The notes under the pieces are model-generated. The model saw nothing but the letters and a program-made list of their open reading frames with translations, did no database searches and was not told where the DNA came from. A stretch of 64,000 bases of DNA, from positions 1 through 64,000 of the IMG/VR virus record IMGVR_UViG_3300045391_004887, one strand, 5' to 3'. The stretch comes from a virus. The position numbers and the translations under genes were made by a program. The number at the start of each line of letters is the position of its first letter. The first letter of the stretch is position 1. Shown here one piece after another: positions 28,507-56,317 of the stretch.

Positions 28507-28582
28507 TGGTTGCGCAGGCTGGGATCGAACCAGCGACCTGCGGATTATGAGTCCGCCGTGCAAACCACTACACCACTGCGCG
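28507..28582 (-). tRNA. tRNA-Met (anticodon CAT), 76 nt with encoded CCA and an initiator-like C1.A72 mismatch
   Basis: CGCGCAG TG GTGT AGTGGTTT GCAC G GCGGA CTCATAA TCCGC AGGTC GCTGG TTCGATC CCAGC CTGCGCA A CCA. This is a full cloverleaf. The 5' end lies 1 nt after the stop of 28583..28891. Confidence 0.85.
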
Positions 28583-41015: not shown

Positions 41016-41388
41016 GACGTCCCCATGGCCACGCCAACGGCGGCAAGGTGCGCCGCTCCGCAGGCGCGTCGAAGCCCCACGGAGTCAGGTCGCGAATCGC
41101 CTTGAACTTCGCGAGCGCGTAGTCCCGCTCGATCCCCATGCCCTCGGACACGCGACCGCCGGTCAGCCAAAGCTCGTCGCACCGCTCGATCAGCGCCTTG
41201 TCGCAGCGCAGCCCGAGATCGCGGTGCTCTTCGGACAGCACGCTCGAGAGCACGATCCAGTCGGCGACGGGCGAGACGCCCATGTGCAGCGCTGCCCACG
41301 CAGCCCACTTCGCCGCATTGCGGCGGTTGGCCTCCATGGCTTCGGCGTTGGGGCCGGCCAATTGGTGCGCTATATACACCACTCTCAC
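41008..41388 (-). CDS. Nucleoside-deoxyribosyltransferase-fold-like phage protein (DUF4406/DUF1937-type, 126 aa)
   Basis: (V)RVVYIAHQLAGPNAEAMEANRRNAAKWAAWAA… resembles that family. The call is from memory only. Confidence 0.45.
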   Translation of the reverse strand: MRVVYIAHQLAGPNAEAMEANRRNAAKWAAWAALHMGVSPVADWIVLSSVLSEEHRDLGLRCDKALIERCDELWLTGGRVSEGMGIERDYALAKFKAIRDLTPWGFDAPAERRTLPPLAWPWGRHV

Positions 41389-42098
41389 GCCGCCACCCCG
41401 GAGCCTTCTCTGGCGGCAATGAGCTTGATCGCCTGCGCCCGAAGATCTTCAGGTGTGACCACTCGCGGCGACCGCAGCAGCGCTGATTCCGGGGGCTCAC
41501 CACTCCCAAGTCGCTCGTGGAGAGTGGAATAGTTGACCCCCGAGACATCGGCCCAGTCGGCCAAGCAGAGGGTCACTCCGAAAGCAGATACCAGTCTTGT
41601 TCTACGGGTGTTGCGAGCCTGGTCCGACCTCGTTGCCCATCGACAGTTTTCCGGGCTGTACCCGAGCGCGTTGTCACGGCGCTCGATCGAATGCTCCTTC
41701 GTCGGGCGCTGCCCCATGTCCGCGATGAAGTTGGCGTAGCTTTCCCGCCATCGTTCGCAAACACGAATTCCGCGGCCGCCATATCTGTCGAAGCTAGCCG
41801 CGCGCGGGTTCTCGCAGCGGTGGATGATGGCGCTCCAAATCCTATACTCAGGAGTCCGCCTTCCACCGTGCGTGCGGACCCTGTCCCGTAGCTGTTCCCT
41901 ATGGAAGCAGCCGCACGACGTCGTATTTCCATTCATGAGCGATGCGACGATTACGATGACCTGTTTCCCGCAGTCGCAGTCGCACTGCCATGCGTTCGGC
42001 TTCCGCCCTTCCATGCGAACGTAGACCTTCGCCGTCAGACGCCCGAAACGACGTCCGGCCAAATCTATTCGTGGTCCGTGATCGGGGTTCGCCATCAC
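41385..42098 (-). CDS. Zinc-finger / HNH-related DNA-binding protein (237 aa), lower GC than its neighbours
   Basis: GRRFGRLTAKVYV…WQCDCDCGK…TSCGCFH…RTPEYRIWSAIIHRCENP…YGGRGIRVCERWRESYANFIADMG…SIERRDNALGYSPENCRWATRSDQARN. Confidence 0.6.
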   Translation of the reverse strand: MMANPDHGPRIDLAGRRFGRLTAKVYVRMEGRKPNAWQCDCDCGKQVIVIVASLMNGNTTSCGCFHREQLRDRVRTHGGRRTPEYRIWSAIIHRCENPRAASFDRYGGRGIRVCERWRESYANFIADMGQRPTKEHSIERRDNALGYSPENCRWATRSDQARNTRRTRLVSAFGVTLCLADWADVSGVNYSTLHERLGSGEPPESALLRSPRVVTPEDLRAQAIKLIAAREGSGVAA

Positions 42099-42502
42099 CC
42101 TGCCCCGTTCGCTGCTGACGCCTCAGCGGGCTGCTCGGCGCTCGCGGCTTCCTTGACCAGCTTGCCGAGCGTCCCGGAGACCTCCGCGTGAACCAGCGGA
42201 GGGATCTGCGACGCGGCTTCGAGCATCAACGCTGCGCATCGCTTGAGGCCGCGCTGCGCTTCCGAGAGCTTGCTCTCTTGCATCGCGAGCACTCTGCGCG
42301 CCGACGCGATCTCGGCATCGGTCTCACGCTTCGCCTGCTCTGCGGCTTCGCGGATGCGATCGTCCTGCGCCTGAAGCAGCCGCTCGACGACGCCCTTCGA
42401 CGTCGCGACCAGTCCCTCTGCTTCTTCCGTTCGCCTGCGTAGCTCGACCACCTCGGCCTTGCTGGCTGCGAACGCATCCATCGTCTCCTTGAGCTTGCTC
42501 AT
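42095..42502 (-). CDS. Coiled-coil protein (135 aa)
   Basis: ORF-track protein. ATGA-coupled. Heptad-like E/A/R/K sequence. Confidence 0.55.
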   Translation of the reverse strand: MSKLKETMDAFAASKAEVVELRRRTEEAEGLVATSKGVVERLLQAQDDRIREAAEQAKRETDAEIASARRVLAMQESKLSEAQRGLKRCAALMLEAASQIPPLVHAEVSGTLGKLVKEAASAEQPAEASAANGAG

Positions 42503-42975
42503 CGTCCCTCTCCTCGTGCTGCAGCTGCGGCGACGGTGCCGCGCGTGTAGAAGCTGTTGTCCGTGCCGCCCGGCAGCTCGACGAGCACCAGTCCGCGGCT
42601 CGCTGCGATCGTCGCGTCCTCATCGCATCCCCACGCCAGCAAAGGCGCCGGGCTCGGCGCTGGGAATCCGATCGCGATGGCTTCGCTCACGCCTTCGCGT
42701 AGCCGCGCCCAGTTCTTCGCGTAGACGCTCCATGGGCCATCGGCATCGGCCCAGAGCGCAGGCTGCGCGATGCCGAACGCGGGCAGCGAGCGATAGACCG
42801 CATGGCGCCGGCGCGTCGGCTCGCGATTGCCAGCGACGTGGGGACCGAGCGCGTGCAGCGCGCGCGCGTACGACCAGCCCTGCGCGAGCGCGACGTCGTG
42901 GACGACCTGCAGGATGCCGTACGCATCCATCGTGAGCTCGCCCTCGGTGCCGTGATCGGACTCGGGCCTCAGCAC
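42499..42975 (-). CDS. Hypothetical protein; true start uncertain (GTG 42975, ATG 42930, or the full ORF to 43389 that reads through tRNA-Tyr-1)
   Basis: The C-terminal ~150 aa look coding (…MDAYGILQVVHDVALAQGWSYARALHALGP…). There is no ATG/GTG/TTG in frame between 42975 and the tRNA. See findings. Confidence 0.45.
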   Translation of the reverse strand: MLRPESDHGTEGELTMDAYGILQVVHDVALAQGWSYARALHALGPHVAGNREPTRRRHAVYRSLPAFGIAQPALWADADGPWSVYAKNWARLREGVSEAIAIGFPAPSPAPLLAWGCDEDATIAASRGLVLVELPGGTDNSFYTRGTVAAAAARGEGR

Positions 42976-43211
42976 GCGGGTCGCTTCGTTTGCGATCAGC
43001 CGCGCAGCAGCGACGCGATCAGCGGGCGAGAGGTGGAGGCGAATGAGGTGTGCCGGGATTACGCGCCCGGCCGCGATCGACGCCGCACCTGCTTCGCCAG
43101 CTTTGCCCGCGCTTACGTTGGCCCGCGCGTTGCCTCGCGTGATCGGCTGCCGGCCGAGGATCAGCTCGTCCCCGTCTCTCCGGAGTGTCTGCCTGCGGTC
43201 TTTCGTCGAAG

Positions 43212-43290
43212 TGGCTCGTGAGGGAATCGAACCCCCTTCGCGCAAGCGCACGGCGTTTACAGCGCCGCTCCCATCCACTGGGTACGAGCC
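43212..43290 (-). tRNA. tRNA-Tyr (anticodon GTA), class II with long variable arm, 79 nt, no encoded CCA
   Basis: GGCTCGT AC CCA GTGGA TGG GAG CGGCG CTGTAAA CGCCG TGCGCTTGCGCGAA GGGGG TTCGATT CCCTC ACGAGCC A. Perfect acceptor, anticodon and T stems. The D arm is compressed. Confidence 0.65.
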
Positions 43291-43385
43291 GAGAGTTTCC
43301 TGGTGTGCACTCGAGCACATCGCGAAGAGCGCTATGGCAGCAGCGCTCAGCAGCACTCGGCGTTCTGCTATGTCGATGTTGCGTT

Positions 43386-43934
43386 TCACGTGAACACCTC
43401 AATGCGGACTCCACAGGTCCGCCTCTTTTCTTGAGCGCACTCCCACCTCACATCGGGACTGCGATCATTGATACCGAGCCAGTCGGCCACCCCATCACGG
43501 ACGCGGAACAGGCTGACCTCGAGGTTGTCGCCGGCGTCGAGCTCGTGCGGCGCGAGTCTCACTATCCGAACGCGGCACGGCGGCTTGATCTTGAGGCCCT
43601 GAACGTTCGCATACGCGCGCATCGATAACGCCACCGCGGTCCGCATGTCGCCCCGCGCGCGGTGCTTCTTCTGCCAACCGACGTGGTCGTTCTTCTCGCT
43701 GACCGTGTGGATCGGCAGCTCCACAACGAGCGTCGCACCTTTGCTTGCGAGCGCCTTCGCCTCGGCCGCTTCCTGCACCGCGGCCTGATCTCGCTTCGCC
43801 TGTTCCACTCGAGCTCGACGCCACGCGGCGACCAGCTTGGCCATCGTCTTCGACAGCTGAACGTCCCCGGCGAGCACGAGCTGATCGCGGAAGCGCTCGA
43901 GCTGCGGACCGATGCTCTCGGCGACCGCGCTCAA
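43386..43934 (-). CDS. RusA-like Holliday-junction resolvase with N-terminal extension (182 aa)
   Basis: …LPIHTVSEKNDHVGWQKKHRARGDMRTAVAL…RLAPHELDAGDNLEVSLFRVRDGVADWLG… resembles the RusA acidic catalytic pattern. TTGA-coupled. Confidence 0.55.
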   Translation of the reverse strand: MSAVAESIGPQLERFRDQLVLAGDVQLSKTMAKLVAAWRRARVEQAKRDQAAVQEAAEAKALASKGATLVVELPIHTVSEKNDHVGWQKKHRARGDMRTAVALSMRAYANVQGLKIKPPCRVRIVRLAPHELDAGDNLEVSLFRVRDGVADWLGINDRSPDVRWECAQEKRRTCGVRIEVFT

Positions 43935-44458
43935 GCCGCCTCCCCTTCCTGCGATGGGTAGAGGGCGCGCTGGACGTCAGCGGGATCGCATGGGCGCAGC
44001 GTCGGCGCGCTCGCTCTGTACTCGGTCGTGTGGTGCCACGGCACGGGCGGCACGCCGTTGCTGAACGCTAGGACCCCCGAGAGCAGCAGATGGCGAAGAC
44101 CAGGCCACGCGCGAACGCATGCACCGAACCCGCGCTCGTCAACGATCAGGTGCCGGGAGAGCTCGTCAGCAGCGAACCAGGCGAAGGCCCTGGCGACGTC
44201 GTCCGGCATACCAGTGGGAGTGGCGAGACCGGCGTCGTCGGCAACGTCGCTTCCTTCGGGCAGATGCTCGACGATGAACTGGCCTTTGGGAACGCGCCCG
44301 AGCGGCCGCGAGATCCCAACCTCTCCGTCGAACCTGGTGCGGACGATGAAGCGGCCGACCTGGATTCCGGAGACCTCGACGAATCGGCCAACGTCCAGCC
44401 GCACGCGGTACCGCACCGCGCAGGGATCGACGTCCTCGCTCGTGGCGCCGATGTTCAC
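43931..44458 (-). CDS. Hypothetical protein (175 aa)
   Basis: Start trimmed to GTG 44458..44456, in a GTGA overlap with the stop of the unlisted 48-aa ORF. Confidence 0.5.
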   Translation of the reverse strand: MNIGATSEDVDPCAVRYRVRLDVGRFVEVSGIQVGRFIVRTRFDGEVGISRPLGRVPKGQFIVEHLPEGSDVADDAGLATPTGMPDDVARAFAWFAADELSRHLIVDERGFGACVRAWPGLRHLLLSGVLAFSNGVPPVPWHHTTEYRASAPTLRPCDPADVQRALYPSQEGEAA

Positions 44459-44601
44459 TTCGCGGGCCTCTCGATCTGCAACGGCCCGCAACCACCGCAG
44501 TTCAGGCCGTACACGTTCGAGCCGACTTTGATGCCGCCAAAGAAGAACGCGAGCGCGAGGCAGAATAGAACCATCTCGATGAAGTCACGCATCACGCGCA
44601 T
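44455..44601 (-). CDS. Small membrane protein (48 aa), below the ORF-track size cut-off
   Basis: GGAGGTG SD, then ATG: MRVMRDFIEMVLFCLALAFFFGGIKVGSNVYGLNCGGCGPLQIERPAK. Stop overlaps the next gene's GTG. Confidence 0.5.
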   Translation of the reverse strand: MRVMRDFIEMVLFCLALAFFFGGIKVGSNVYGLNCGGCGPLQIERPAK

Positions 44602-44622
44602 CACGCACCTCCGACTTTTGCG

Positions 44623-45135
44623 TCACGGCCATCGGGCACCTCGATTCACCGGCTTGATCACCTCGCCGTCGACTTCGATTCCGCGCAGGTACTGGCCACG
44701 CGACTCGAGCCACTCCGCGACGTTGCCCTTGAACTCACGCAGCGACGCGGCGATCAGCGCATCACGAACGTCGATGCGGCCCTTCCCTCGAGGCCCGACC
44801 ACGAGCAGCACCGTGCTGGTCTCGAGCGCAGTCAGCATCGGCGCTTGCAGCTCGAGCACCTGGCGGCACGCGACGCCCGCGCTGTGCCCACGCTGCGCGT
44901 AGCCGCCGGCGCCGTTGCTTACGAACTCGCCGCAGTCGGGGCACGAGTACACGCCGTCTTGGACGTGGCAGCCGTGCCTGCAGCCAGGGCACACGCCCGT
45001 AGCTGCCTTCTGCCGCGCCGGTACCGGCTTCGGTGGGTCGTAGCGGCGTCCCGGTGGGCTGGCTTCGCGAGCGCGCGCGGCCTGCAGCTGAAGCTGCGCC
45101 TTGTCGCTCGGCTTGGGACCGGCTTGGGTGGTCAT
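44623..45135 (-). CDS. Zinc-ribbon protein (170 aa)
   Basis: Start trimmed to ATG 45135..45133 (ATGA overlap with the DnaC-like stop). Contains CPGCRHGCHVQDGVYSCPDCG. Confidence 0.55.
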   Translation of the reverse strand: MTTQAGPKPSDKAQLQLQAARAREASPPGRRYDPPKPVPARQKAATGVCPGCRHGCHVQDGVYSCPDCGEFVSNGAGGYAQRGHSAGVACRQVLELQAPMLTALETSTVLLVVGPRGKGRIDVRDALIAASLREFKGNVAEWLESRGQYLRGIEVDGEVIKPVNRGARWP

Positions 45136-45773
45136 GGCTTTCGGCTCCGCAGGTCCGGCCCCGAATCGCTGATCCACACCGCGATGCCGGGCTCACCGAG
45201 CCGGCTCTGCAGTCGCGCGTCCGCGTACGTCTTGAGAAACGCCGCCTTCGCGATGTTCGCGATCGCGATGGTCTTCTGCCCACGCTTACGGCGCTCGTCC
45301 ACGAGGTCGAGCAGCGCGGCCGACATGTTGCCCGCGTCCCGCTCGCGGCCGATGTCGTCGACCACGAGCAAGCGGGTCGCGAGCATCGCGGAGAACGTCT
45401 CGGCCTCTTCGCCGAATCGCGCGCTCGCTAGGCGTTCAAGCTCGCGTGCACCGACGTACCTGCCTCCCGACTGCACCAGGGCCCATGCGGCAGCAAGCGT
45501 CTTCCCGCGGCCGGTTGAGCCCACGAGCAGCGCCCATGGGACATCCGATGTGAGCCAGGCAGAGATCGCCGAGATCGTGCGCAACGACATGTCGAGCCCG
45601 TCGCGCATCAAGAGGTCGTGATCGGCCGCCGTGATCGGCAGGTTCAGCCCATCAATCGCGCTCTTGCGCGCGAAAACGGCCTGCTCTCGCTTGAACGCCG
45701 CTTCCTGTGCGATCTCGGCCTCGGTTGGCTCTTTCCAGTTCGCCAAGATGGCGTTGAAGTCGACCTTACGCAT
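45132..45773 (-). CDS. DnaC / IstB-like AAA+ helicase loader (213 aa)
   Basis: Walker A LLVGSTGRGKTLAAAWAL and Walker B LLVVDDIGRE. Directly follows the replication-initiator-like gene. Confidence 0.8.
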   Translation of the reverse strand: MRKVDFNAILANWKEPTEAEIAQEAAFKREQAVFARKSAIDGLNLPITAADHDLLMRDGLDMSLRTISAISAWLTSDVPWALLVGSTGRGKTLAAAWALVQSGGRYVGARELERLASARFGEEAETFSAMLATRLLVVDDIGRERDAGNMSAALLDLVDERRKRGQKTIAIANIAKAAFLKTYADARLQSRLGEPGIAVWISDSGPDLRSRKP

Positions 45774-46731
45774 TGCTTGTCGCTCCTCGCGCGCGGCTCG
45801 CAGCCATCAGCGCTTCGTAGTCGTCGGGCTCGGCGTCGAACTCGGCTGCGGTACTCACAGGCGCTGGCGCGCCCTTGCGACGCTCTCCCGTGCGGCGCTC
45901 GGCCGCGTACTTCTGCCAGTGCTTGCGGACGTGCCGAGGGGTTGCGTTGTCGCGACACCAGTCGTCGCTCTTCAGCGCATGCAACGCGCGGTCGAGCTCG
46001 GCGCGCGGCTGGTCGGCGATCCAGTTCAGGTCATCGATCCATGCAACCGGATCCCATGTGCTGCCGACGATGCGCTTGATCTCGTCGCTCGCGGCTTGCG
46101 CGATGACTCCGCTGCTTGCGTAAGGCTTCGCCGCGATCACCTCAGCTGCGAGCGTTGGCGACTGAGCCGGGACTGCCACGATCGGCCTGAGCTCCGAGAC
46201 TACGGACTCGGGCGCGCGCGCCTGCTCATGCGCTTGATCCTGATAATGCTCCTGCTCTTGTTCCTGCTCTTGGCTTCGAAGGGGCTTCGAAGGGGCTTCT
46301 GAAGAGCAGATTTGGAGCTCGTACGGGAGCTGATAAGGCTCTCTGTAGGTCTTGACGAACTCCCAGAAGAAGCGGTGATCTTTGAACTTTTCGATCCACT
46401 CGATCACCATCTTGTGGCGGTTATCCGTGCACTTTAGCGTTCGTCCGATCTGCTCCCTCGCCATGTGGGTCACCCACATGAGCTCGGAAGCCTCGTCGTG
46501 CTGGCAGAACCCCTCTTCAGAGAGCCTTGCAAGGCCCTTCGAAGCCCCTTCCGGAGAGATGCCGATTTCGTGATAGAGCGTCGGGAGGGCGAGATAGAAA
46601 AGCCCCGTCATGTGCTGCGACGGGCAGGTCATGATGTAGAAGCAAACGCGCTGCGCGTCGGCATCACCGCGTAGGCGTTTGCCGGTTCCGCGCGTCCAGA
46701 AATGGGGGCTGACCTTGCTGTAGTCCCTCAT
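45766..46731 (-). CDS. Replication initiator-like protein (321 aa) with a low-GC, repeat-bearing central region
   Basis: Start trimmed to ATG 46731..46729: MRDYSKVSPHFWTRGTGKRLRGDADAQRVCFYIMTCPSQHMTGLFYLALPTLYHEIG… Has an SQEQEQEQEH linker. Upstream of the DnaC-like loader. The upstream part of the track ORF is junk. Confidence 0.65.
   Translation of the reverse strand: MRDYSKVSPHFWTRGTGKRLRGDADAQRVCFYIMTCPSQHMTGLFYLALPTLYHEIGISPEGASKGLARLSEEGFCQHDEASELMWVTHMAREQIGRTLKCTDNRHKMVIEWIEKFKDHRFFWEFVKTYREPYQLPYELQICSSEAPSKPLRSQEQEQEQEHYQDQAHEQARAPESVVSELRPIVAVPAQSPTLAAEVIAAKPYASSGVIAQAASDEIKRIVGSTWDPVAWIDDLNWIADQPRAELDRALHALKSDDWCRDNATPRHVRKHWQKYAAERRTGERRKGAPAPVSTAAEFDAEPDDYEALMAASRARGATSNA
46272..46304. 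repeat. Three tandem 11-bp repeats (GGCTTCGAAGG x2, GGCTTCTGAAG), iteron-like
   Basis: Read directly at 46272-46282, 46283-46293 and 46294-46304. Lies inside the replication gene at the edge of its AT-richer segment. Confidence 0.6.
46513..46548. repeat. Inverted copies of the same 11-mer (exact CCTTCGAAGCC at 46536-46546; degenerate CTCTTCAGAGAGCC at about 46513-46526)
   Basis: Read directly. Together with 46272-46304 they flank a ~200-bp stretch of lower GC. Confidence 0.5.
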
Positions 46732-46793
46732 CAACTGCTCCCAGCCTTCCTCCGCGCCCGACTGCTGCGCTGCTGCTGACCCTTGCTCAGCCC

Positions 46794-47477
46794 TCAACCC
46801 TCCGACTCGATCTCCGTCTGCTTCTCGTCCGGCTCGCCCGCTGGCGCAGCCTCGGCCTGTGGATCGTCGACGTTCATGGGCATCACCACGAACGTGCCCT
46901 TGTAGCCGGCGATGTTCTGGACGATGTCGAACCGCATCGCGGAGAGGCGCGTCTTGGGCGCCGTGATCTCCACCGCGTGACCTGGCCGAGACGCGCAGCG
47001 CAGCACGCGAGCGAGTAGCTCGGGGTTGAACGCCCACGACGCCACAGCCTCGGCGCCTGGCACGTAGGCGTCGGGGATCACCTTGTCGTAGGGGATCTCG
47101 ATCTGCTCTGCTGACTTGGGGATGACGATCTTCGATGACTGCAGCAGGAGCTGCACCAGCGAGCGACCGACTTGGAGCTCTACAGCGGTCTCCGAGCGCT
47201 CTTTCTGATCGAGCCGAGAGAGCAGCTTCTCGAGCACGGGCAGATGCTCAGTCGCGATGCTGAACGAGGTGGGCTCGCTGCACGACGAGACATCGGCGCT
47301 GACCTTGCCGAGGGTGTGACCGTCGGTCGCGTAGCACTCGAGGTCCGTCTTGTCGGCGGAGAAGTGCAAGAGCATCAGGTGCGGGCGTTCCGTGTCCTTG
47401 CCCGCGAGCGGCTTGCACGCCTGAATCAGCGTCAGCAGCTTGTCGGCGATGATCGTGATCGTCGGCTTCTCAGGCAC
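46794..47477 (-). CDS. Two-domain DNA polymerase III beta-clamp homologue (about 227 aa)
   Basis: …ECYATDGHTLGKV… (cf. the ATDGHRL motif), …IEIPYDKVIPDA… (cf. FPDY..V.P), …WAFNPELLARVL…GTFVVMPMNV (cf. the C-terminal …FN..YL…YVVMPMRL). About 140 aa shorter than bacterial DnaN. Start taken as GTG 47477, 6 nt after GGAGG; the track start is TTG 47483. Confidence 0.7.
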   Translation of the reverse strand: MPEKPTITIIADKLLTLIQACKPLAGKDTERPHLMLLHFSADKTDLECYATDGHTLGKVSADVSSCSEPTSFSIATEHLPVLEKLLSRLDQKERSETAVELQVGRSLVQLLLQSSKIVIPKSAEQIEIPYDKVIPDAYVPGAEAVASWAFNPELLARVLRCASRPGHAVEITAPKTRLSAMRFDIVQNIAGYKGTFVVMPMNVDDPQAEAAPAGEPDEKQTEIESEG

Positions 47478-47802
47478 CAGCAACCTCCGAGCTCAGGTAG
47501 ACGAAAGCGGATCTCACAGGCGCGTCCGCCCGTTCGTTGACAGCACCGGTGCTGCTGACGTCGTGGTGCTGCACTGCCGTCCGCCGCGGCAGCAGTGGGG
47601 TGTACTCACACCCTCATAGATTGAAGCCCGGTTGCCGCTGCGAACGATCGCAGCGACGAGGACGCCGGGCGCGCCCGCAGCGGCCATTACTTCTGGTGCC
47701 GCTCTGAAAAGCTGCCCGGTCTCGCGACGCCGAGTCTTCTGCTCGTACGCTGCAGCTACGTCGCTCGTGTGCCGCCGGGCGCGGCTCTCCATTTTTGTCT
47801 GA

Positions 47803-47881
47803 GTGGCGGGTGAGGGAATCGAACCCCCTTTGCGCAAGCGCGAGCGATGTACAGTCGCCCTGCCCTCCATGGGCTCCCCGC
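47803..47881 (-). tRNA. Second tRNA-Tyr(GTA)-like gene, 79 nt; non-canonical C37 and G7.A66
   Basis: GGCGGGG AG CCC ATGGA GGG CAG GGCGA CTGTACA TCGCT CGCGCTTGCGCAAA GGGGG TTCGATT CCCTC ACCCGCC A. Same architecture as 43212..43290, with compensatory stem changes. Confidence 0.5.
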
Positions 47882-47895
47882 CGACAGCTGAAGCG

Positions 47896-48348
47896 TTACG
47901 CATCGCCAGCCCCCTGGCGGGCCACGACCTCGCAGGTATCCACGACCTCGAATGCCTGCTTCGCAGCGGCGACCGCTCTCGACTGGCTGTGGAGCTCGTC
48001 GGTGTAATGCTCGGCGCACCACGACCATGTGGTGGTGCGCCTGGTCGCCGGCCGGATGACATCGGCACGCTGCACGATGCAGTCGCAGCACGGAGGGTCC
48101 GCGCCCTTCGCCAGCTGTTCGAGCGCACGACTCCCGCGCGTTTGATCGCTACAGGACCTCGCGACTCTGAGCAGCAACTCCCGGCGATACTCGTCGCTCA
48201 CCGCATCGACCAGCTCGCAGTCCGCAGCCTTTGCGAACGACTCGGGCCAGCCGCAGCAGATGACTTCGCCGCGCTCTTCGTCGCACGCGAGTACCCACGT
48301 CTCGCCGGACGGCTTGTGCAGGACGTGATCGCCAGCCCGGAAGGTCAC
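47896..48348 (-). CDS. Cys-rich hypothetical protein (150 aa)
   Basis: Start trimmed to GTG 48348..48346 (GTGA overlap): VTFRAGDHVLHKPSGETWVLACDEERGEVICCGWPESFAKAADCELV…. Confidence 0.55.
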   Translation of the reverse strand: MTFRAGDHVLHKPSGETWVLACDEERGEVICCGWPESFAKAADCELVDAVSDEYRRELLLRVARSCSDQTRGSRALEQLAKGADPPCCDCIVQRADVIRPATRRTTTWSWCAEHYTDELHSQSRAVAAAKQAFEVVDTCEVVARQGAGDA

Positions 48349-48509
48349 CGTGGCACCTCGCTCGACGCGCGTGTGCCCCACTGCACGCGCACGGGCTCAC
48401 CGTCGCTGCCGCTTAGGTCGATGCGGTAGACCTTGCCGCCAACGCTCACGCCGCGGACGAACAGCTCCAGGATCACGAAGAACAGCAGCCAAGCGATGAC
48501 GTTACGCAT
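48345..48509 (-). CDS. Small membrane protein (54 aa)
   Basis: Internal ATG 48509..48507: MRNVIAWLLFFVILELFVRGVSVGGKVYRIDLSGSDGEPVRVQW…. Confidence 0.5.
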   Translation of the reverse strand: MRNVIAWLLFFVILELFVRGVSVGGKVYRIDLSGSDGEPVRVQWGTRASSEVPR

Positions 48510-49650: not shown

Positions 49651-50043
49651 TCAGGCTCCGACCGATGGCTGCGTGATCGAGTTGAAAATCGGCGCGCGAG
49701 ACGCGTCGCGACGGCGAACGTTCAGAACGTTCTCGCCGTCTGCGATCAGCTGCACGATCAGCTGATGCTCGGCGTACTCGCCGTCGTACCAACCGCGCGC
49801 GCATGCGACGACGTCGAAGCTGTAGCGCTCGATGCCGTCCGAACGCATCGCGTCGTGGATAGGTTGGCGGCAGGGCCCGTATTCGTCGCGGCGTGCGTAC
49901 GTGCGGTGCAGGCTCCATCGCGCCGCGACCTTGCGCGTGCAGCCGACATAAACGCCGGACGGTCCGCGGATCGTGTAGATGTGCCGAACAGCCGAACGGT
50001 CGATCGGCTTGCGACGCTTACGTTTCGGGGCCGACGCGCTCAC
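49651..50043 (-). CDS. GIY-YIG domain protein (130 aa)
   Basis: …RHIYTIRGPSGVYVGCTRKVAARWSLHRT… fits the spacing GIY-x(9-11)-Y(I/V)G…R…H. GTGA-coupled to the Cro-like gene. Confidence 0.6.
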   Translation of the reverse strand: MSASAPKRKRRKPIDRSAVRHIYTIRGPSGVYVGCTRKVAARWSLHRTYARRDEYGPCRQPIHDAMRSDGIERYSFDVVACARGWYDGEYAEHQLIVQLIADGENVLNVRRRDASRAPIFNSITQPSVGA

Positions 50044-50288
50044 AACGCCTGCTCCTGCTCAGCGGCCGTCTGCGGATCGGGCGGGTCGAGCAGGATTGCG
50101 TACGGGGAGCAGCGGTAGAGATGCGCGAGCTTGATCAGCGCCGAGAGCGGTATCTCGGTGAAGCCCGTCTCCCAGCGGGAGACCGTGCCCTTCTTCACGC
50201 CGAAGTGGTCGGCGACCTGCTGCTGACTGAGCTTTGCGCGCTTGCGTTCAGCCTTCGCGCGCTTACCAACTTCTTTCGCTGTCATCAT
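50040..50288 (-). CDS. Cro-like XRE-family HTH regulator (82 aa), first gene of the minus-strand train
   Basis: …KRAKLSQQQVADHFGVKKGTVSRWETG… Divergent from the CI-like gene. Confidence 0.8.
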   Translation of the reverse strand: MMTAKEVGKRAKAERKRAKLSQQQVADHFGVKKGTVSRWETGFTEIPLSALIKLAHLYRCSPYAILLDPPDPQTAAEQEQAL

Positions 50289-50338
50289 GGCGTGATGACA
50301 CGGTACTCATGTCGTGATTACTCGTCAACCGGGAAACC

Positions 50339-54003: not shown

Positions 54004-54451
54004 CGAGATCGCTCTCTACGGCTTGGACCGTGTCCGCAAGGTGCTCGGTGATCTGTTCGTCGCCGCCGACTACCCGGGCGGTCCGAAGCAGATGCACCGC
54101 GATCTGCTCGACGCCGAGCACCATGCCGATCTGATCTCCGACCGCAACGCGTTCGCGACGGCTGTGCTCCGCGGAGACGCCGACGACTACATGCACGCGT
54201 GGCACGCGCGGTTCGGCGAGTCGCTGTGCGACCACTGCAACGACCTCTCAGCGCGGATGCTGCGCGTAGCGCGTGATCGGGCTGAGGCGGCTCACGAGCG
54301 CGAGCGCAAGGCGCTGATGCGGGCCCTGCACCTGATCCGCACCGGGCTGCGCGGCGTGGTCTCGTCGAGCGAATACTACGACGCCGACGCGTTGCTCTCG
54401 AAGCTCGCGCGCTACTTCGAGATCGACGAAGGGAGCCGGTCCGATGGCTGA
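53996..54451 (+). CDS. Hypothetical protein (151 aa)
   Basis: ORF-track protein with balanced composition. Confidence 0.55.
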   Translation: MPNEIALYGLDRVRKVLGDLFVAADYPGGPKQMHRDLLDAEHHADLISDRNAFATAVLRGDADDYMHAWHARFGESLCDHCNDLSARMLRVARDRAEAAHERERKALMRALHLIRTGLRGVVSSSEYYDADALLSKLARYFEIDEGSRSDG

Positions 54452-55382
54452 CGGTGGACCGATCGTTCTTGGCTCCGCGCTCGACCGCGAGCGCTGGAAG
54501 CAGCTGCGGCGCTCCGGGATCGGGGCGTCCGAGATCGCTGCCGTGCTCGGCGAATCGCCGTGGCTCAGCGCTATCGAGCTGTACGCGGTCAAGATCGGTC
54601 AGAGCGATGGCGATCCGTCGCTCGACACGGCAGAGCACGTCTACTGGGGCAACCAGCTCGAGGCCGCGATCATCGCCGGCTATCAGGACCGTACCGGCCG
54701 GCCGGTCAAGCGGTCCGCCGTCCTGCTGCGCTCAGCCGAGCACCCGTGGGCCATCTGCACGCTCGACGGCGAGACGGGCGACGTGGGCGGAGAGCCGTCG
54801 TGGCCGCTCGAGATCAAGAACGTCGGCATGCACAAGGCCGTGGAGTGGGAGGATGGCCCGCCGCCCCACTACCGCCTTCAGCTGCAGCACCAAATGCTGG
54901 TGACGGGCGCGCACAAGGCGACGGCCGCCGCACTGATCGGTGGCCAGCGCCTGGTGTGGTGCGACGTCGAGCGCGATGAGATCGAGATCCGCCGCATCAA
55001 GCACGCCGGCCGCATCTTCTGGGAACAGTGCGTGGAAGCGGGCGTGTGCCCCAAGCCGGACGGCAGCGACAGCGCATCGCGCGCGCTCGCCGCGCTCTAC
55101 AGCAAGCGGCCTGACCCGGAGTCGTTCGTGCAGCTCGGCGGCGACCTGCTCGATCTCGACGAGGAGCTGTGCGGCCTGAAGGAAGCGCAGCGCACGCTCA
55201 AGCAGCGCATCGATCTGATCGAGCAGCACATCAAGGCAGCGATCGGTGAGGCCGAGTACGGCGCGCTGCCGAACGGTACTCGCTACAGCTGGAAGCAGCA
55301 GACCAGGGCCGCGTACGCAGTCGACGAAGCCACGTTCCGCGTGCTGCGCAGGCACGCAAGTAAGCAGGAGAAGAGCAGATGA
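54444..55382 (+). CDS. YqaJ-type (lambda-Exo-like, PD-(D/E)xK) recombination exonuclease (312 aa)
   Basis: …RSGIGASEIAAVLGESPWLSAIELYAVKIG… and …LEIKNVG… are typical of the YqaJ family. Immediately upstream of recT. Confidence 0.8.
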   Translation: MADGGPIVLGSALDRERWKQLRRSGIGASEIAAVLGESPWLSAIELYAVKIGQSDGDPSLDTAEHVYWGNQLEAAIIAGYQDRTGRPVKRSAVLLRSAEHPWAICTLDGETGDVGGEPSWPLEIKNVGMHKAVEWEDGPPPHYRLQLQHQMLVTGAHKATAAALIGGQRLVWCDVERDEIEIRRIKHAGRIFWEQCVEAGVCPKPDGSDSASRALAALYSKRPDPESFVQLGGDLLDLDEELCGLKEAQRTLKQRIDLIEQHIKAAIGEAEYGALPNGTRYSWKQQTRAAYAVDEATFRVLRRHASKQEKSR

Positions 55383-56317
55383 GCACTGGACCGCAGACCA
55401 AGCCGAACGGTGAGATCGTGAAGAAGCAGGCAGACCCAGCGGGGGACCTGCGGCAGATGCTCCGCAAGATGCTGCCGGAGATCGAGCGCGCGCTGCCCAA
55501 GCACGTCACGCCCGATCGCATGGCGCGCGTCGCCACCACCGCGCTGACGACGACCAAAGACCTCGCGCTGTGCACGATCCCCAGCTTCGTTGGCTGCGTC
55601 ATGCAGGCCGCACAGCTTGGGCTCGAGGTCAACACGCCGCTCGGGCATGCCTACCTCATCCCGCGCAAGGCGAAGAACCTGCAGCCGTCGCAGCGCAACT
55701 GCACGCTGATCATCGGCTATCAGGGCTTCATCGAGCTGGCGCGGCGTAGCGGCATGGTGTCGAGCATCTACGCCTACGCCGTGCGCGATGGCGACGCCTT
55801 CGAGTACGAGCTCGGGCTCGAGCCGACGCTCAAGCACAAGCCGAGCGAGGCAGAGGACCGCGAGAAGAAGAAGATCACGCACGTCTACGCGGTCGCGAAG
55901 ATGCGCGATTCCGACGAGCGCGTGTTCGTGGTGCTGACCCGCGCGCAGATCGAGGCTCGACGGCTGCGCGGCGCATCGGCCAGCGCGGACACTCCCTGGG
56001 ATACCGACTACGAGGCCATGGCCCTGAAGAGCGCGGTGCGTGCGCTCTGGAAGTGGCTTCCGAAGAGCGCCGAGATCGCGCGCGCGACGGCTCTCGAGGA
56101 CGCGGCGGAGAGCGGGGCGTCGCAGACCAGCGTGCTCGATCCCACGGTCGCCGATGCGATGACGCGCGGCGGGCTCATCGACGAAGCTGAGATCGTAGCG
56201 GAGCAGCAACAGAGCGGCGGCGAGCTGCAGAGCGACACCACCACGGTGAGCGATGACGAGCTGCGCCGTGTCGCTCAGGGCGACAAGGCCAAGCCCGAAC
56301 AGCAAGAGATCAAGTAG
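55379..56317 (+). CDS. recT: RecT-family single-strand annealing protein (312 aa)
   Basis: …SFVGCVMQAAQLGLEVNTPLGHAYLIP…CTLIIGYQGFIELARRSGMVSSIYAYAV… ATGA overlap with the exonuclease stop. Confidence 0.85.
   Translation: MSTGPQTKPNGEIVKKQADPAGDLRQMLRKMLPEIERALPKHVTPDRMARVATTALTTTKDLALCTIPSFVGCVMQAAQLGLEVNTPLGHAYLIPRKAKNLQPSQRNCTLIIGYQGFIELARRSGMVSSIYAYAVRDGDAFEYELGLEPTLKHKPSEAEDREKKKITHVYAVAKMRDSDERVFVVLTRAQIEARRLRGASASADTPWDTDYEAMALKSAVRALWKWLPKSAEIARATALEDAAESGASQTSVLDPTVADAMTRGGLIDEAEIVAEQQQSGGELQSDTTTVSDDELRRVAQGDKAKPEQQEIK

Follow-up and report, generated by a model that had tools for sequence, protein, structure and literature searches.

The 64,000-nucleotide (nt) window analyzed here (positions 1 to 64,000 of the IMG/VR virus record IMGVR_UViG_3300045391_004887) carries two minus-strand loci, 43212..43290 (copy 1) and 47804..47882 (copy 2), that almost certainly are real tRNA-Tyr(GUA) genes. 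Both have a compact layout, with a compressed D arm and an extended anticodon stem, that is recurrent in unrelated phages and is a new structural variant among the known phage-encoded tRNAs. The genes very probably belong to the exchangeable accessory cargo of the phage and, on balance, appear to be a functional pair that sustains tyrosine decoding when the host tRNA-Tyr is depleted.

An ARAGORN search of the whole window identifies three minus-strand tRNAs. One is a tRNA-Met (28507-28582); the other two, 43211-43290 and 47803-47882, are called as tRNA-Tyr(gta), and in both of these the anticodon is placed at position 31. Of the two 79-nt minus-strand intervals delineated in an earlier note on this DNA, the first is exact, and the second has to be shifted by one base (47804-47882 rather than 47803-47881). 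The class II cloverleaf proposed there, with the anticodon GTA, G1:C72, A73 and a long variable arm, agrees with the ARAGORN calls, the predicted folds and the parse of the sequences. In copy 1, the acceptor stem of 7 base pairs (bp) is followed by the linker A, the D stem CCCA/TGGG, the D loop GTGGA, the spacer A, a 6-bp anticodon stem with the loop CTGTAAA, a 13-nt variable arm, the T arm GGGGG/TTCGATT/CCCTC and A73; the CCA end is not encoded. Copy 2 has the same order of parts, with the D stem GCCC/GGGC, the D loop ATGGA, the anticodon loop CTGTACA, that is, C37, and a G7.A66 mismatch. The latter two peculiarities had been pointed out before and are both real, as are the compensatory changes in the stems, but the stem boundaries given with them are not, the D stems being 4 bp and the anticodon stems 6 bp long. 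The variable arm of each copy is 13 nt long and includes a stem of 3-4 bp. Both sequences parse into a cloverleaf of four arms that has U33 in an anticodon loop of 7 nt, the T loop TTCGA and G18G19, and for each copy taken alone the minimum-free-energy fold is the cloverleaf.

The bacterial rules of tyrosine identity, namely the GUA anticodon, A73, G1-C72 and a long variable region (PMC9976931), are obeyed completely by both copies. The general rules are not: in canonical tRNAs, the linker has two nucleotides, with U8, the anticodon stem is 5 bp long and position 37 is a purine (PMC7609411), whereas both copies have a single A as the linker and a 6-bp anticodon stem, and copy 2 additionally has C37. 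In an Rfam scan of the whole window, the general tRNA model, RF00005, matches the tRNA-Met alone; when a 300-nt slice is searched, copy 1 is recovered with 33.3 bits (gathering score 29). Of the two checks suggested in the earlier note, ARAGORN calls both genes, and the general covariance model matches copy 1 in the slice but not in the whole-window scan, and copy 2 in neither. Both genes lie in non-coding gaps of an early/replication operon, in the same orientation as the operon, and the third-position GC (GC3) periodicity is lost at 43100-43400 and 47500-47900. The long open reading frames 42499-43389 and 47514-48128, which extend across the tRNAs, were considered as coding sequences and rejected, given the loss of the GC3 periodicity and the fact that homologues align downstream only; with a genome GC content of 67.5%, such long frames over both loci are artefacts.

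Comparison of the two copies reveals 21 differences in 79 positions, of which 18 fall in stems. Both sides are altered, with the pairing kept, in eight stem pairs; one pair is altered on one side, from G.U to G-C, and one, G7.A66 in copy 2, is broken; random placement of 18 stem substitutions never kept the pairing as well as observed (0 of 100,000 trials). These compensatory changes, the separate cloverleaf folds and scores of about 82 bits on an independent family model (described below) bear out the suggestion that the pair has been shaped by selection on RNA structure and not by decay.

A search with an architecture pattern, in which the stems were left free and the D-loop end, the spacing, CTGTA and the T loop were fixed, identifies at least 16 distinct phage-borne tRNA-Tyr genes with the same layout, and all 16 non-redundant sequences parse alike. 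The class is defined by a 7-bp acceptor stem, a 1-nt linker that is usually A (2 nt in three members), a 4-bp D stem, the 5-nt D loop NTGGA, the spacer A, a 6-bp anticodon stem, the anticodon loop CTGTAAA, a variable arm forming a hairpin of 11-13 nt, a canonical T arm and the discriminator A73. The compressed D arm that had been noticed in the window is therefore a family-wide hallmark of a recurrent class of phage tRNA-Tyr. Compact members are located in tRNA arrays of large uncultured phages, and also occur as lone genes in viral contigs of 40-60 kilobases (kb) and in a few bacterial assemblies; among the bacterial-assembly matches checked, two adjoin integrases, and one of these also a virion protein gene. 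The pattern matches only 11 times in 185,579 species genomes, so that the compact form is not the tRNA-Tyr of any cellular clade.

The layout is supported by covariation among members that had been collected with the loops and the spacing held constant. In an alignment of 13 members, which supersedes a MAFFT alignment where the acceptor stems of members with 2-nt linkers were misaligned, 97.8% of the cells are paired (38-46% in slid controls), and both sides vary in 23 of the 25 pairs, the four pairs of the D stem among them; the sixth pair of the anticodon stem is standard in only 9 of the 13 members. A covariance model, R1, built solely from 11 external (non-window) members, recognizes copy 1 with 82.9 bits and copy 2 with 82.1 bits over the full length (E-value about 1e-20). 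By comparison, the tRNA-Met of the window scores 21.4 bits, the tRNA-Tyr of phage T5 43 bits, and tRNA-Tyr genes of mycobacteriophages and Pseudomonas phages 29-55 bits. BLAST searches of isolates started with copy 1 and three family members yield only T-arm matches or non-compact tRNA-Tyr genes, the latter from Wildcat, Shrimp, PE09 and Synechococcus B3 and scoring 29-55 bits on R1. In a limited literature search, reviews of non-canonical tRNAs and of identity rules make no mention of such a tRNA-Tyr.

Several of the sequences collected with the pattern have features of their own. Two tRNA-Tyr genes, one canonical and one compact, are also present in other phages (L045, L027 and L028); in L045 (7494-7661), the canonical-length copy of 83 nt directly adjoins the compact copy of 80 nt. 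Two compact members, L028 2152-2232 and L032 5139-5218, have C1-G72, the archaeal/eukaryal type of the tyrosine pair (G1-C72 in bacteria). The pattern matches L031 2622-2696, L035 250-318, L038 3964-4034 and 5978-6048, L039 1500-1574 and L040 395-465 are tRNA-like sequences that score 29-39 bits on the compact-Tyr model and are not called by ARAGORN; they lie in metagenome-assembled genomes (MAGs) of Chlamydiae, except for L035, which comes from an unclassified uncultured-bacterium MAG, and the two sequences in L038 are about 2 kb apart. Apart from the pattern matches, the annotated tRNA-Tyr of Mycobacterium phage Shrimp (cluster C1; L052 277-362) has the anticodon loop CUGUAAC, with C at position 38, and so adds a further variant of this loop among phage tRNA-Tyr genes.

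Among characterized tRNAs, the same set of structural departures is found in human mitochondrial (mt) tRNA-Ser(UGA) and in tRNA-Pyl, which have lost position 9, have a 5-nt D loop and contain an extra anticodon-stem pair; without position 9, the D stem is displaced by one stacking plane, which still lets G18/G19 reach the T loop, and the extra pair restores the overall dimensions (PMC10412605). The phage class shares with these tRNAs the single linker nucleotide, the 5-nt D loop with G18G19, the sixth anticodon pair and the canonical T loop, but differs in the long, stem-forming variable arm (a 3-nt variable loop in mt-tRNA-Ser(UGA) and tRNA-Pyl), in the linker, which is A rather than U8, and in the anticodon and identity, which are those of tyrosine and not of serine or pyrrolysine. 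The resemblance is best described as a structural analogy, without common ancestry or membership in the same family. Canonical bacterial class II tRNA-Tyr, such as the products of E. coli tyrT/tyrU, has GUA, U33, A73, G1-C72, the long variable arm and TTCGA in common with the compact class and differs from it in the linker, the D stem and loop, the anticodon stem and the length. The E. coli molecule is 85 nt long; its linker consists of two nucleotides, U8 among them, its 3-bp D stem closes a loop of about 11 nt, and its anticodon stem has 5 bp.

Relatives of the phage indicate that the tRNA complement varies. BLAST and pairwise alignment with contig L048, which comes from the same Joint Genome Institute sample, show that a cassette consisting of copy 1 and about 165 nt of its 3' spacer (43048..43300, minus strand; hereafter slot 1) is replaced in that contig by an unrelated 144-nt segment containing a tRNA-Phe(GAA) gene (1021-1093; ARAGORN call, 51.6 bits in Rfam). 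Downstream of slot 1, the identity of the two sequences is 99.5% over 8.4 kb, whereas upstream of it the value is 92-93%, and the breakpoints of the exchange map to the 5' edge of the tRNA and to the start region of the downstream gene. The syntenic contig L047 (terminase 62-70%, portal 60%) is devoid of any tRNA, and so is L007, the closest relative of the replication module; no tRNAs were found in the contigs of the distant initiator homologues, L007-L010. In the P0165 phage (of the P0123/P0165 relative, portal 68%), the gene table leaves no gap at the homologous junction. Protein-seeded searches for the locus with the initiator yielded none in viral or genome contigs. Another eight metagenome contigs (L001-L006, L049 and L050) are 99.9-100% identical to the window, with identical tRNAs, that is, they represent the same phage and thus add no comparative signal; an open reading frame in place of copy 2 in L050 was dismissed as a gene-caller artefact. 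Given the replacement of Tyr by Phe and the existence of relatives without tRNAs, the tRNA-Tyr genes are lineage-specific and are very probably exchangeable accessory cargo.

The exchange also altered the 5' end of the conserved downstream gene (window 42975-43047 versus L048 1147-1230). The window codons upstream of GTG 42975 are homologous, in frame, to those of L048 although they include no in-frame ATG, GTG or TTG; because the ATG of L048 is absent in the window, the window gene starts at GTG 42975. The tRNA-Phe of L048 has an unusual T loop, GGGUCGGUACC.

The differences between the two tRNA-Tyr copies are unevenly distributed. As described in the earlier note, the 3' halves are nearly identical: positions 42-73, which include the variable arm, the T arm and AC, differ at 1 of 32 nt, compared to 20 of 47 elsewhere (Fisher p=6e-5). 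This block occupies 43218..43249 in copy 1 and 47810..47841 in copy 2 (both minus strand) and forms direct repeats 4.6 kb apart; the repeat unit of the pair is 95 nt. The 21-mer AAGGGGGTTCGATTCCCTCAC, common to the two copies, occurs exactly twice in the window and was matched in none of 100 shuffles. The variable arms are identical in 12 of 13 positions between the copies and in at most 8 of 13 positions between either copy and any other family member. Outside the block, in contrast, the copies match at 16 of 36 free columns, and matches with unrelated family members reach 22 of 36, so that a simple recent duplication is unlikely. Judging from this pattern, the copies are probably two old or separately acquired genes in which the block has been homogenized by short-patch gene conversion; the alternative is a strong shared constraint on the block. 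The phage encodes a recombination module, a YqaJ-like exonuclease and a RecT single-strand annealing protein (54336-56314, plus strand), that could drive short-patch gene conversion or cassette exchange.

Two explanations that the earlier note had put forward for the pair are not borne out. The first of these regards the block as a site of recombination or module exchange that brackets the replication cassette. The direct repeats and the presence of the YqaJ exonuclease and RecT, which are able to use short homologies, are what such a site would call for, but the sole exchange seen, that in L048, replaces the entire tRNA with its spacer and has its breakpoints outside the tRNA and hence outside the block. 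Furthermore, the contigs covering both copies or the module all match the window at 99.9-100% identity and contain the same module, the exact 32-nt block is not found in viral or metagenome contigs beyond the pair, and recombination between the repeats would delete the initiator and the loader and join mismatched acceptor halves; this explanation is highly improbable. The proposal to read one copy as what is left of an att-like integration site draws on the frequent integration of phages into tRNA genes and on a compact member, L034, that abuts a tyrosine integrase. It is scarcely credible here: neither gene is truncated and each has an acceptor stem with compensated changes of its own, the identity ends before the acceptor stem's 3' strand, both loci lie within an operon rather than at a prophage end, and no integrase or transposase was detected among the window genes scanned.

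With regard to function, the favoured reading, which we consider somewhat probable, is that the two genes are accessory cargo that provides the phage with a functional pair of compact tRNA-Tyr and sustains tyrosine decoding under depletion of the host tRNA-Tyr. Both tRNAs would be transcribed within the long minus-strand early/replication operon, excised by the host RNase P together with 3' processing enzymes, completed by the host CCA-adding enzyme and charged by the host tyrosyl-tRNA synthetase (TyrRS). The last step is predicted on account of G1-C72, A73, GUA and the long variable arm, which are present in both copies. The pair would then keep up the decoding of UAC and UAU when a tRNA-directed defence depletes or cleaves the host tRNA-Tyr. 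Since the bodies of the two tRNAs are very different and the variable arm and T arm, which face TyrRS, are common to both, the host nucleases would be offered two different targets. Defence evasion as the main selective reason for the pair is a serious possibility, though held with more reserve than the reading as a whole. The role suggested in the earlier note, as replacements that withstand host anticodon nucleases, is plausible and fits what is known of phage tRNAs (PMC11555353, PMC10264068) as well as the strain-level swap of tRNAs in slot 1.

The closest functional precedent is the tRNA-Tyr of T5-like phages. The PtuAB effector of retron-Eco7 depletes tRNA-Tyr, and phage tRNA-Tyr rescues the infection, a strong T5-type promoter being important in that system; a phage tRNA-Tyr has been shown to act as a counter-measure to a tRNA-targeting retron defence (PMC11555353). 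As in the window, the T5-like gene encodes a tRNA-Tyr(GUA) with bacterial identity elements that is accessory and resides in a region of variable tRNA content. However, it is an ordinary class II molecule of 88 nt with a large D arm that falls outside the R1 model, and it belongs to a large tRNA array behind a strong promoter, in contrast to the two lone genes inside a replication operon; moreover, its link to defence has been shown, whereas that of the window pair is putative. Another phage tRNA named in this context is the T5 tRNA-Lys, which reportedly acts against PARIS. For some phage tRNAs, changes in the anticodon loop are predicted to block anticodon nucleases, and tRNA-Tyr is among the targets of colicin E5-type enzymes (PMC10264068). 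Copy 2, with its anticodon-loop substitution C37, resembles these predicted nuclease-resistant tRNAs, unlike copy 1 and all other compact members, which retain the standard CTGTAAA.

Several observations weigh against the favoured reading, most of them concerning copy 2. This copy has no match to RF00005, even in the slice, its best Rfam hit being tRNA-Sec with 26.4 bits against a cutoff of 47, although the cause of the failure is the architecture of the class and not decay. The C37 of copy 2 is unable to carry the usual modification of A37. With C37 and G7.A66, copy 2 may decode poorly, and may be either impaired or specialized. The family members were ascertained by their architecture, with the D-loop end, the anticodon and the T loop fixed in the pattern. 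In addition, no sigma-70-type promoter-like site was detected in 42900-48500, where the consensus used may not be that of the host.

A stronger version of the doubts about copy 2 is that only copy 1 is functional and copy 2 is a decaying or non-decoding relic. Copy 2 is alone among all compact-family members found in having C37, and the broken pair and the RF00005 failure point in the same direction. A relic is nevertheless hard to reconcile with the eight doubly compensated stem pairs that separate it from copy 1, with only a single pair broken, with an R1 score equal to that of copy 1, and with a cloverleaf that is the dominant fold (ensemble frequency 0.37); furthermore, copy 2 is identical in every metagenome contig recovered. 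We regard decay of copy 2 as decidedly unlikely. The classical alternative is that the pair raises the level of tRNA-Tyr for phage translation, as codon or dosage compensation unrelated to defence. This is the common explanation for phage tRNAs (reviewed in PMC10264068), it accords with the normal tyrosine identity elements of both genes, and the structural genes are slightly richer in tyrosine than the rest (2.02% versus 1.63%). However, tyrosine is among the rarest residues in this phage, with 1.85% of the codons, 88% of which are TAC, a codon for which a high-GC host should be well supplied; codon supply is therefore a weak motive, as the earlier note had argued. The syntenic relatives manage without any tRNA, and the presence of Phe instead of Tyr in slot 1 of a nearly identical strain is hard to square with a fixed codon need. 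Supply is, in our view, a rather unlikely reason for the pair.

A more specific and rather unlikely version of the defence scenario concerns the compact core itself, which might represent a phage-specific class, convergent in fold with tRNA-Pyl and mt-tRNA-Ser(UGA), that evolved as a poor substrate for nucleases and toxins. Under this scenario, the loss of U8, of most of the D loop and of the tertiary core would let the molecule evade tRNA-Tyr-directed nucleases or modification-dependent toxins, and the variable arm and the acceptor features needed by TyrRS would be retained. Phage populations would shuffle tRNAs in dedicated intergenic slots, Tyr in one strain and Phe in another, as an arms-race locus, and this phage would hedge by means of two bodies that have one TyrRS-facing module in common.

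Phage tRNAs are now viewed as counter-measures to tRNA-cleaving immunity, and the locus described here bears on how the phage versions escape the nucleases. The compact tRNA-Tyr, recurrent and supported by covariation, draws on the same structural solution as tRNA-Pyl and mitochondrial tRNA-Ser(UGA), and because the general Rfam tRNA model overlooks its members or scores them too low, the class is probably under-annotated. The window and L048 amount to a natural experiment in which two co-occurring, nearly identical strains have tRNA-Tyr versus tRNA-Phe as the only difference at one junction. The pair itself, with very different stems and one common module of variable arm and T arm, separates the needs of TyrRS and the ribosome from the free positions. 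Should the compact body confer resistance to nucleases, it would lend itself as a scaffold on which to engineer orthogonal or defence-proof tRNAs.

The window belongs to a myovirus-like phage with a Mu-type head module that includes a DUF935 portal, a Mu-F-like protein, a protease, sheath, baseplate and tape measure proteins. A megablast search with the 7-kb region finds no match among isolated phages; the portal is nearest to those of isolated Meiothermus, Thermus and Myxococcus phages (33-37% identity), and its other homologues are metagenomic. The minus-strand operon starts with a helix-turn-helix repressor-like gene (50040-50306), followed by genes for a clamp-like protein, a DnaD-like initiator and a DnaC-like loader, and continues to an HNH endonuclease, a methyltransferase and packaging genes. 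The genes and the spacer listed in the rest of this paragraph are all on the minus strand. A gene of unknown function, 47896..48348, delineated by the GC3 frame and by the genes called on identical contigs, has its end 13 nt upstream of copy 2. On the other side, copy 2 is separated from the next gene by a non-coding spacer of about 320 nt (47484..47803) with no coding periodicity, no Rfam match and an unremarkable folding z-score of -0.67. The first gene downstream of copy 2, 46794..47483, encodes a 229-aa protein with weak similarity to the central domain of sliding clamps: it matches PHROG 947 at 1.7e-11 and, more weakly, RusA-like PHROGs, and its match to Pfam PF02767 (E=0.016) is below the cutoff of that family, with 0.9 for PDB. 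It is followed by the DnaD-like replication initiator (45766..46797; PHROG 25210 at 3e-48, PHROG 1701) and the DnaC/IstB-like helicase loader (45132..45773; PHROG 50 at 6.8e-13, Pfam IstB_IS21 at 4e-4). Thus, in the replication cassette outlined in the earlier note, the loader and the initiator stand, the clamp label is weak, and the RusA label for 43386-43934 is unsupported. The latter gene, which ends 95 nt upstream of copy 1, is one of three genes of unknown function (44623-45177, 43931-44491 and 43386-43934) that were recognized by their GC3 frames and have no Pfam or PHROG match. The conserved gene downstream of slot 1 (42499..42975) has homologues in L048 (95% identity) and in L047, L007 and P0165 (47-55%).

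The initiator gene contains iteron-like repeats (46263-46317 and 46526-46558), namely three tandem 11-mers, CTTCGAAGGGG, and an inverted partner with 21-nt arms that are 95% complementary, located beside an AT-rich dip; the 11-mers look like origin iterons embedded in an initiator gene. About 1.1 kb downstream of slot 1, there is a free-standing HNH endonuclease gene (41385-42098, minus strand; PHROG 374 at 4e-66), and HNH genes are likewise interspersed in the tRNA region of T5. The third tRNA of the window, tRNA-Met(CAT) (28507-28582, minus strand; 62.2 bits in Rfam), is encoded in the interval that separates the Mu-F-like head gene from the protease gene, where the syntenic relative L047 has no tRNA. 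Its C1xA72 mismatch is initiator-like, but of the three G-C pairs that usually mark the anticodon stem of initiators it has only two.

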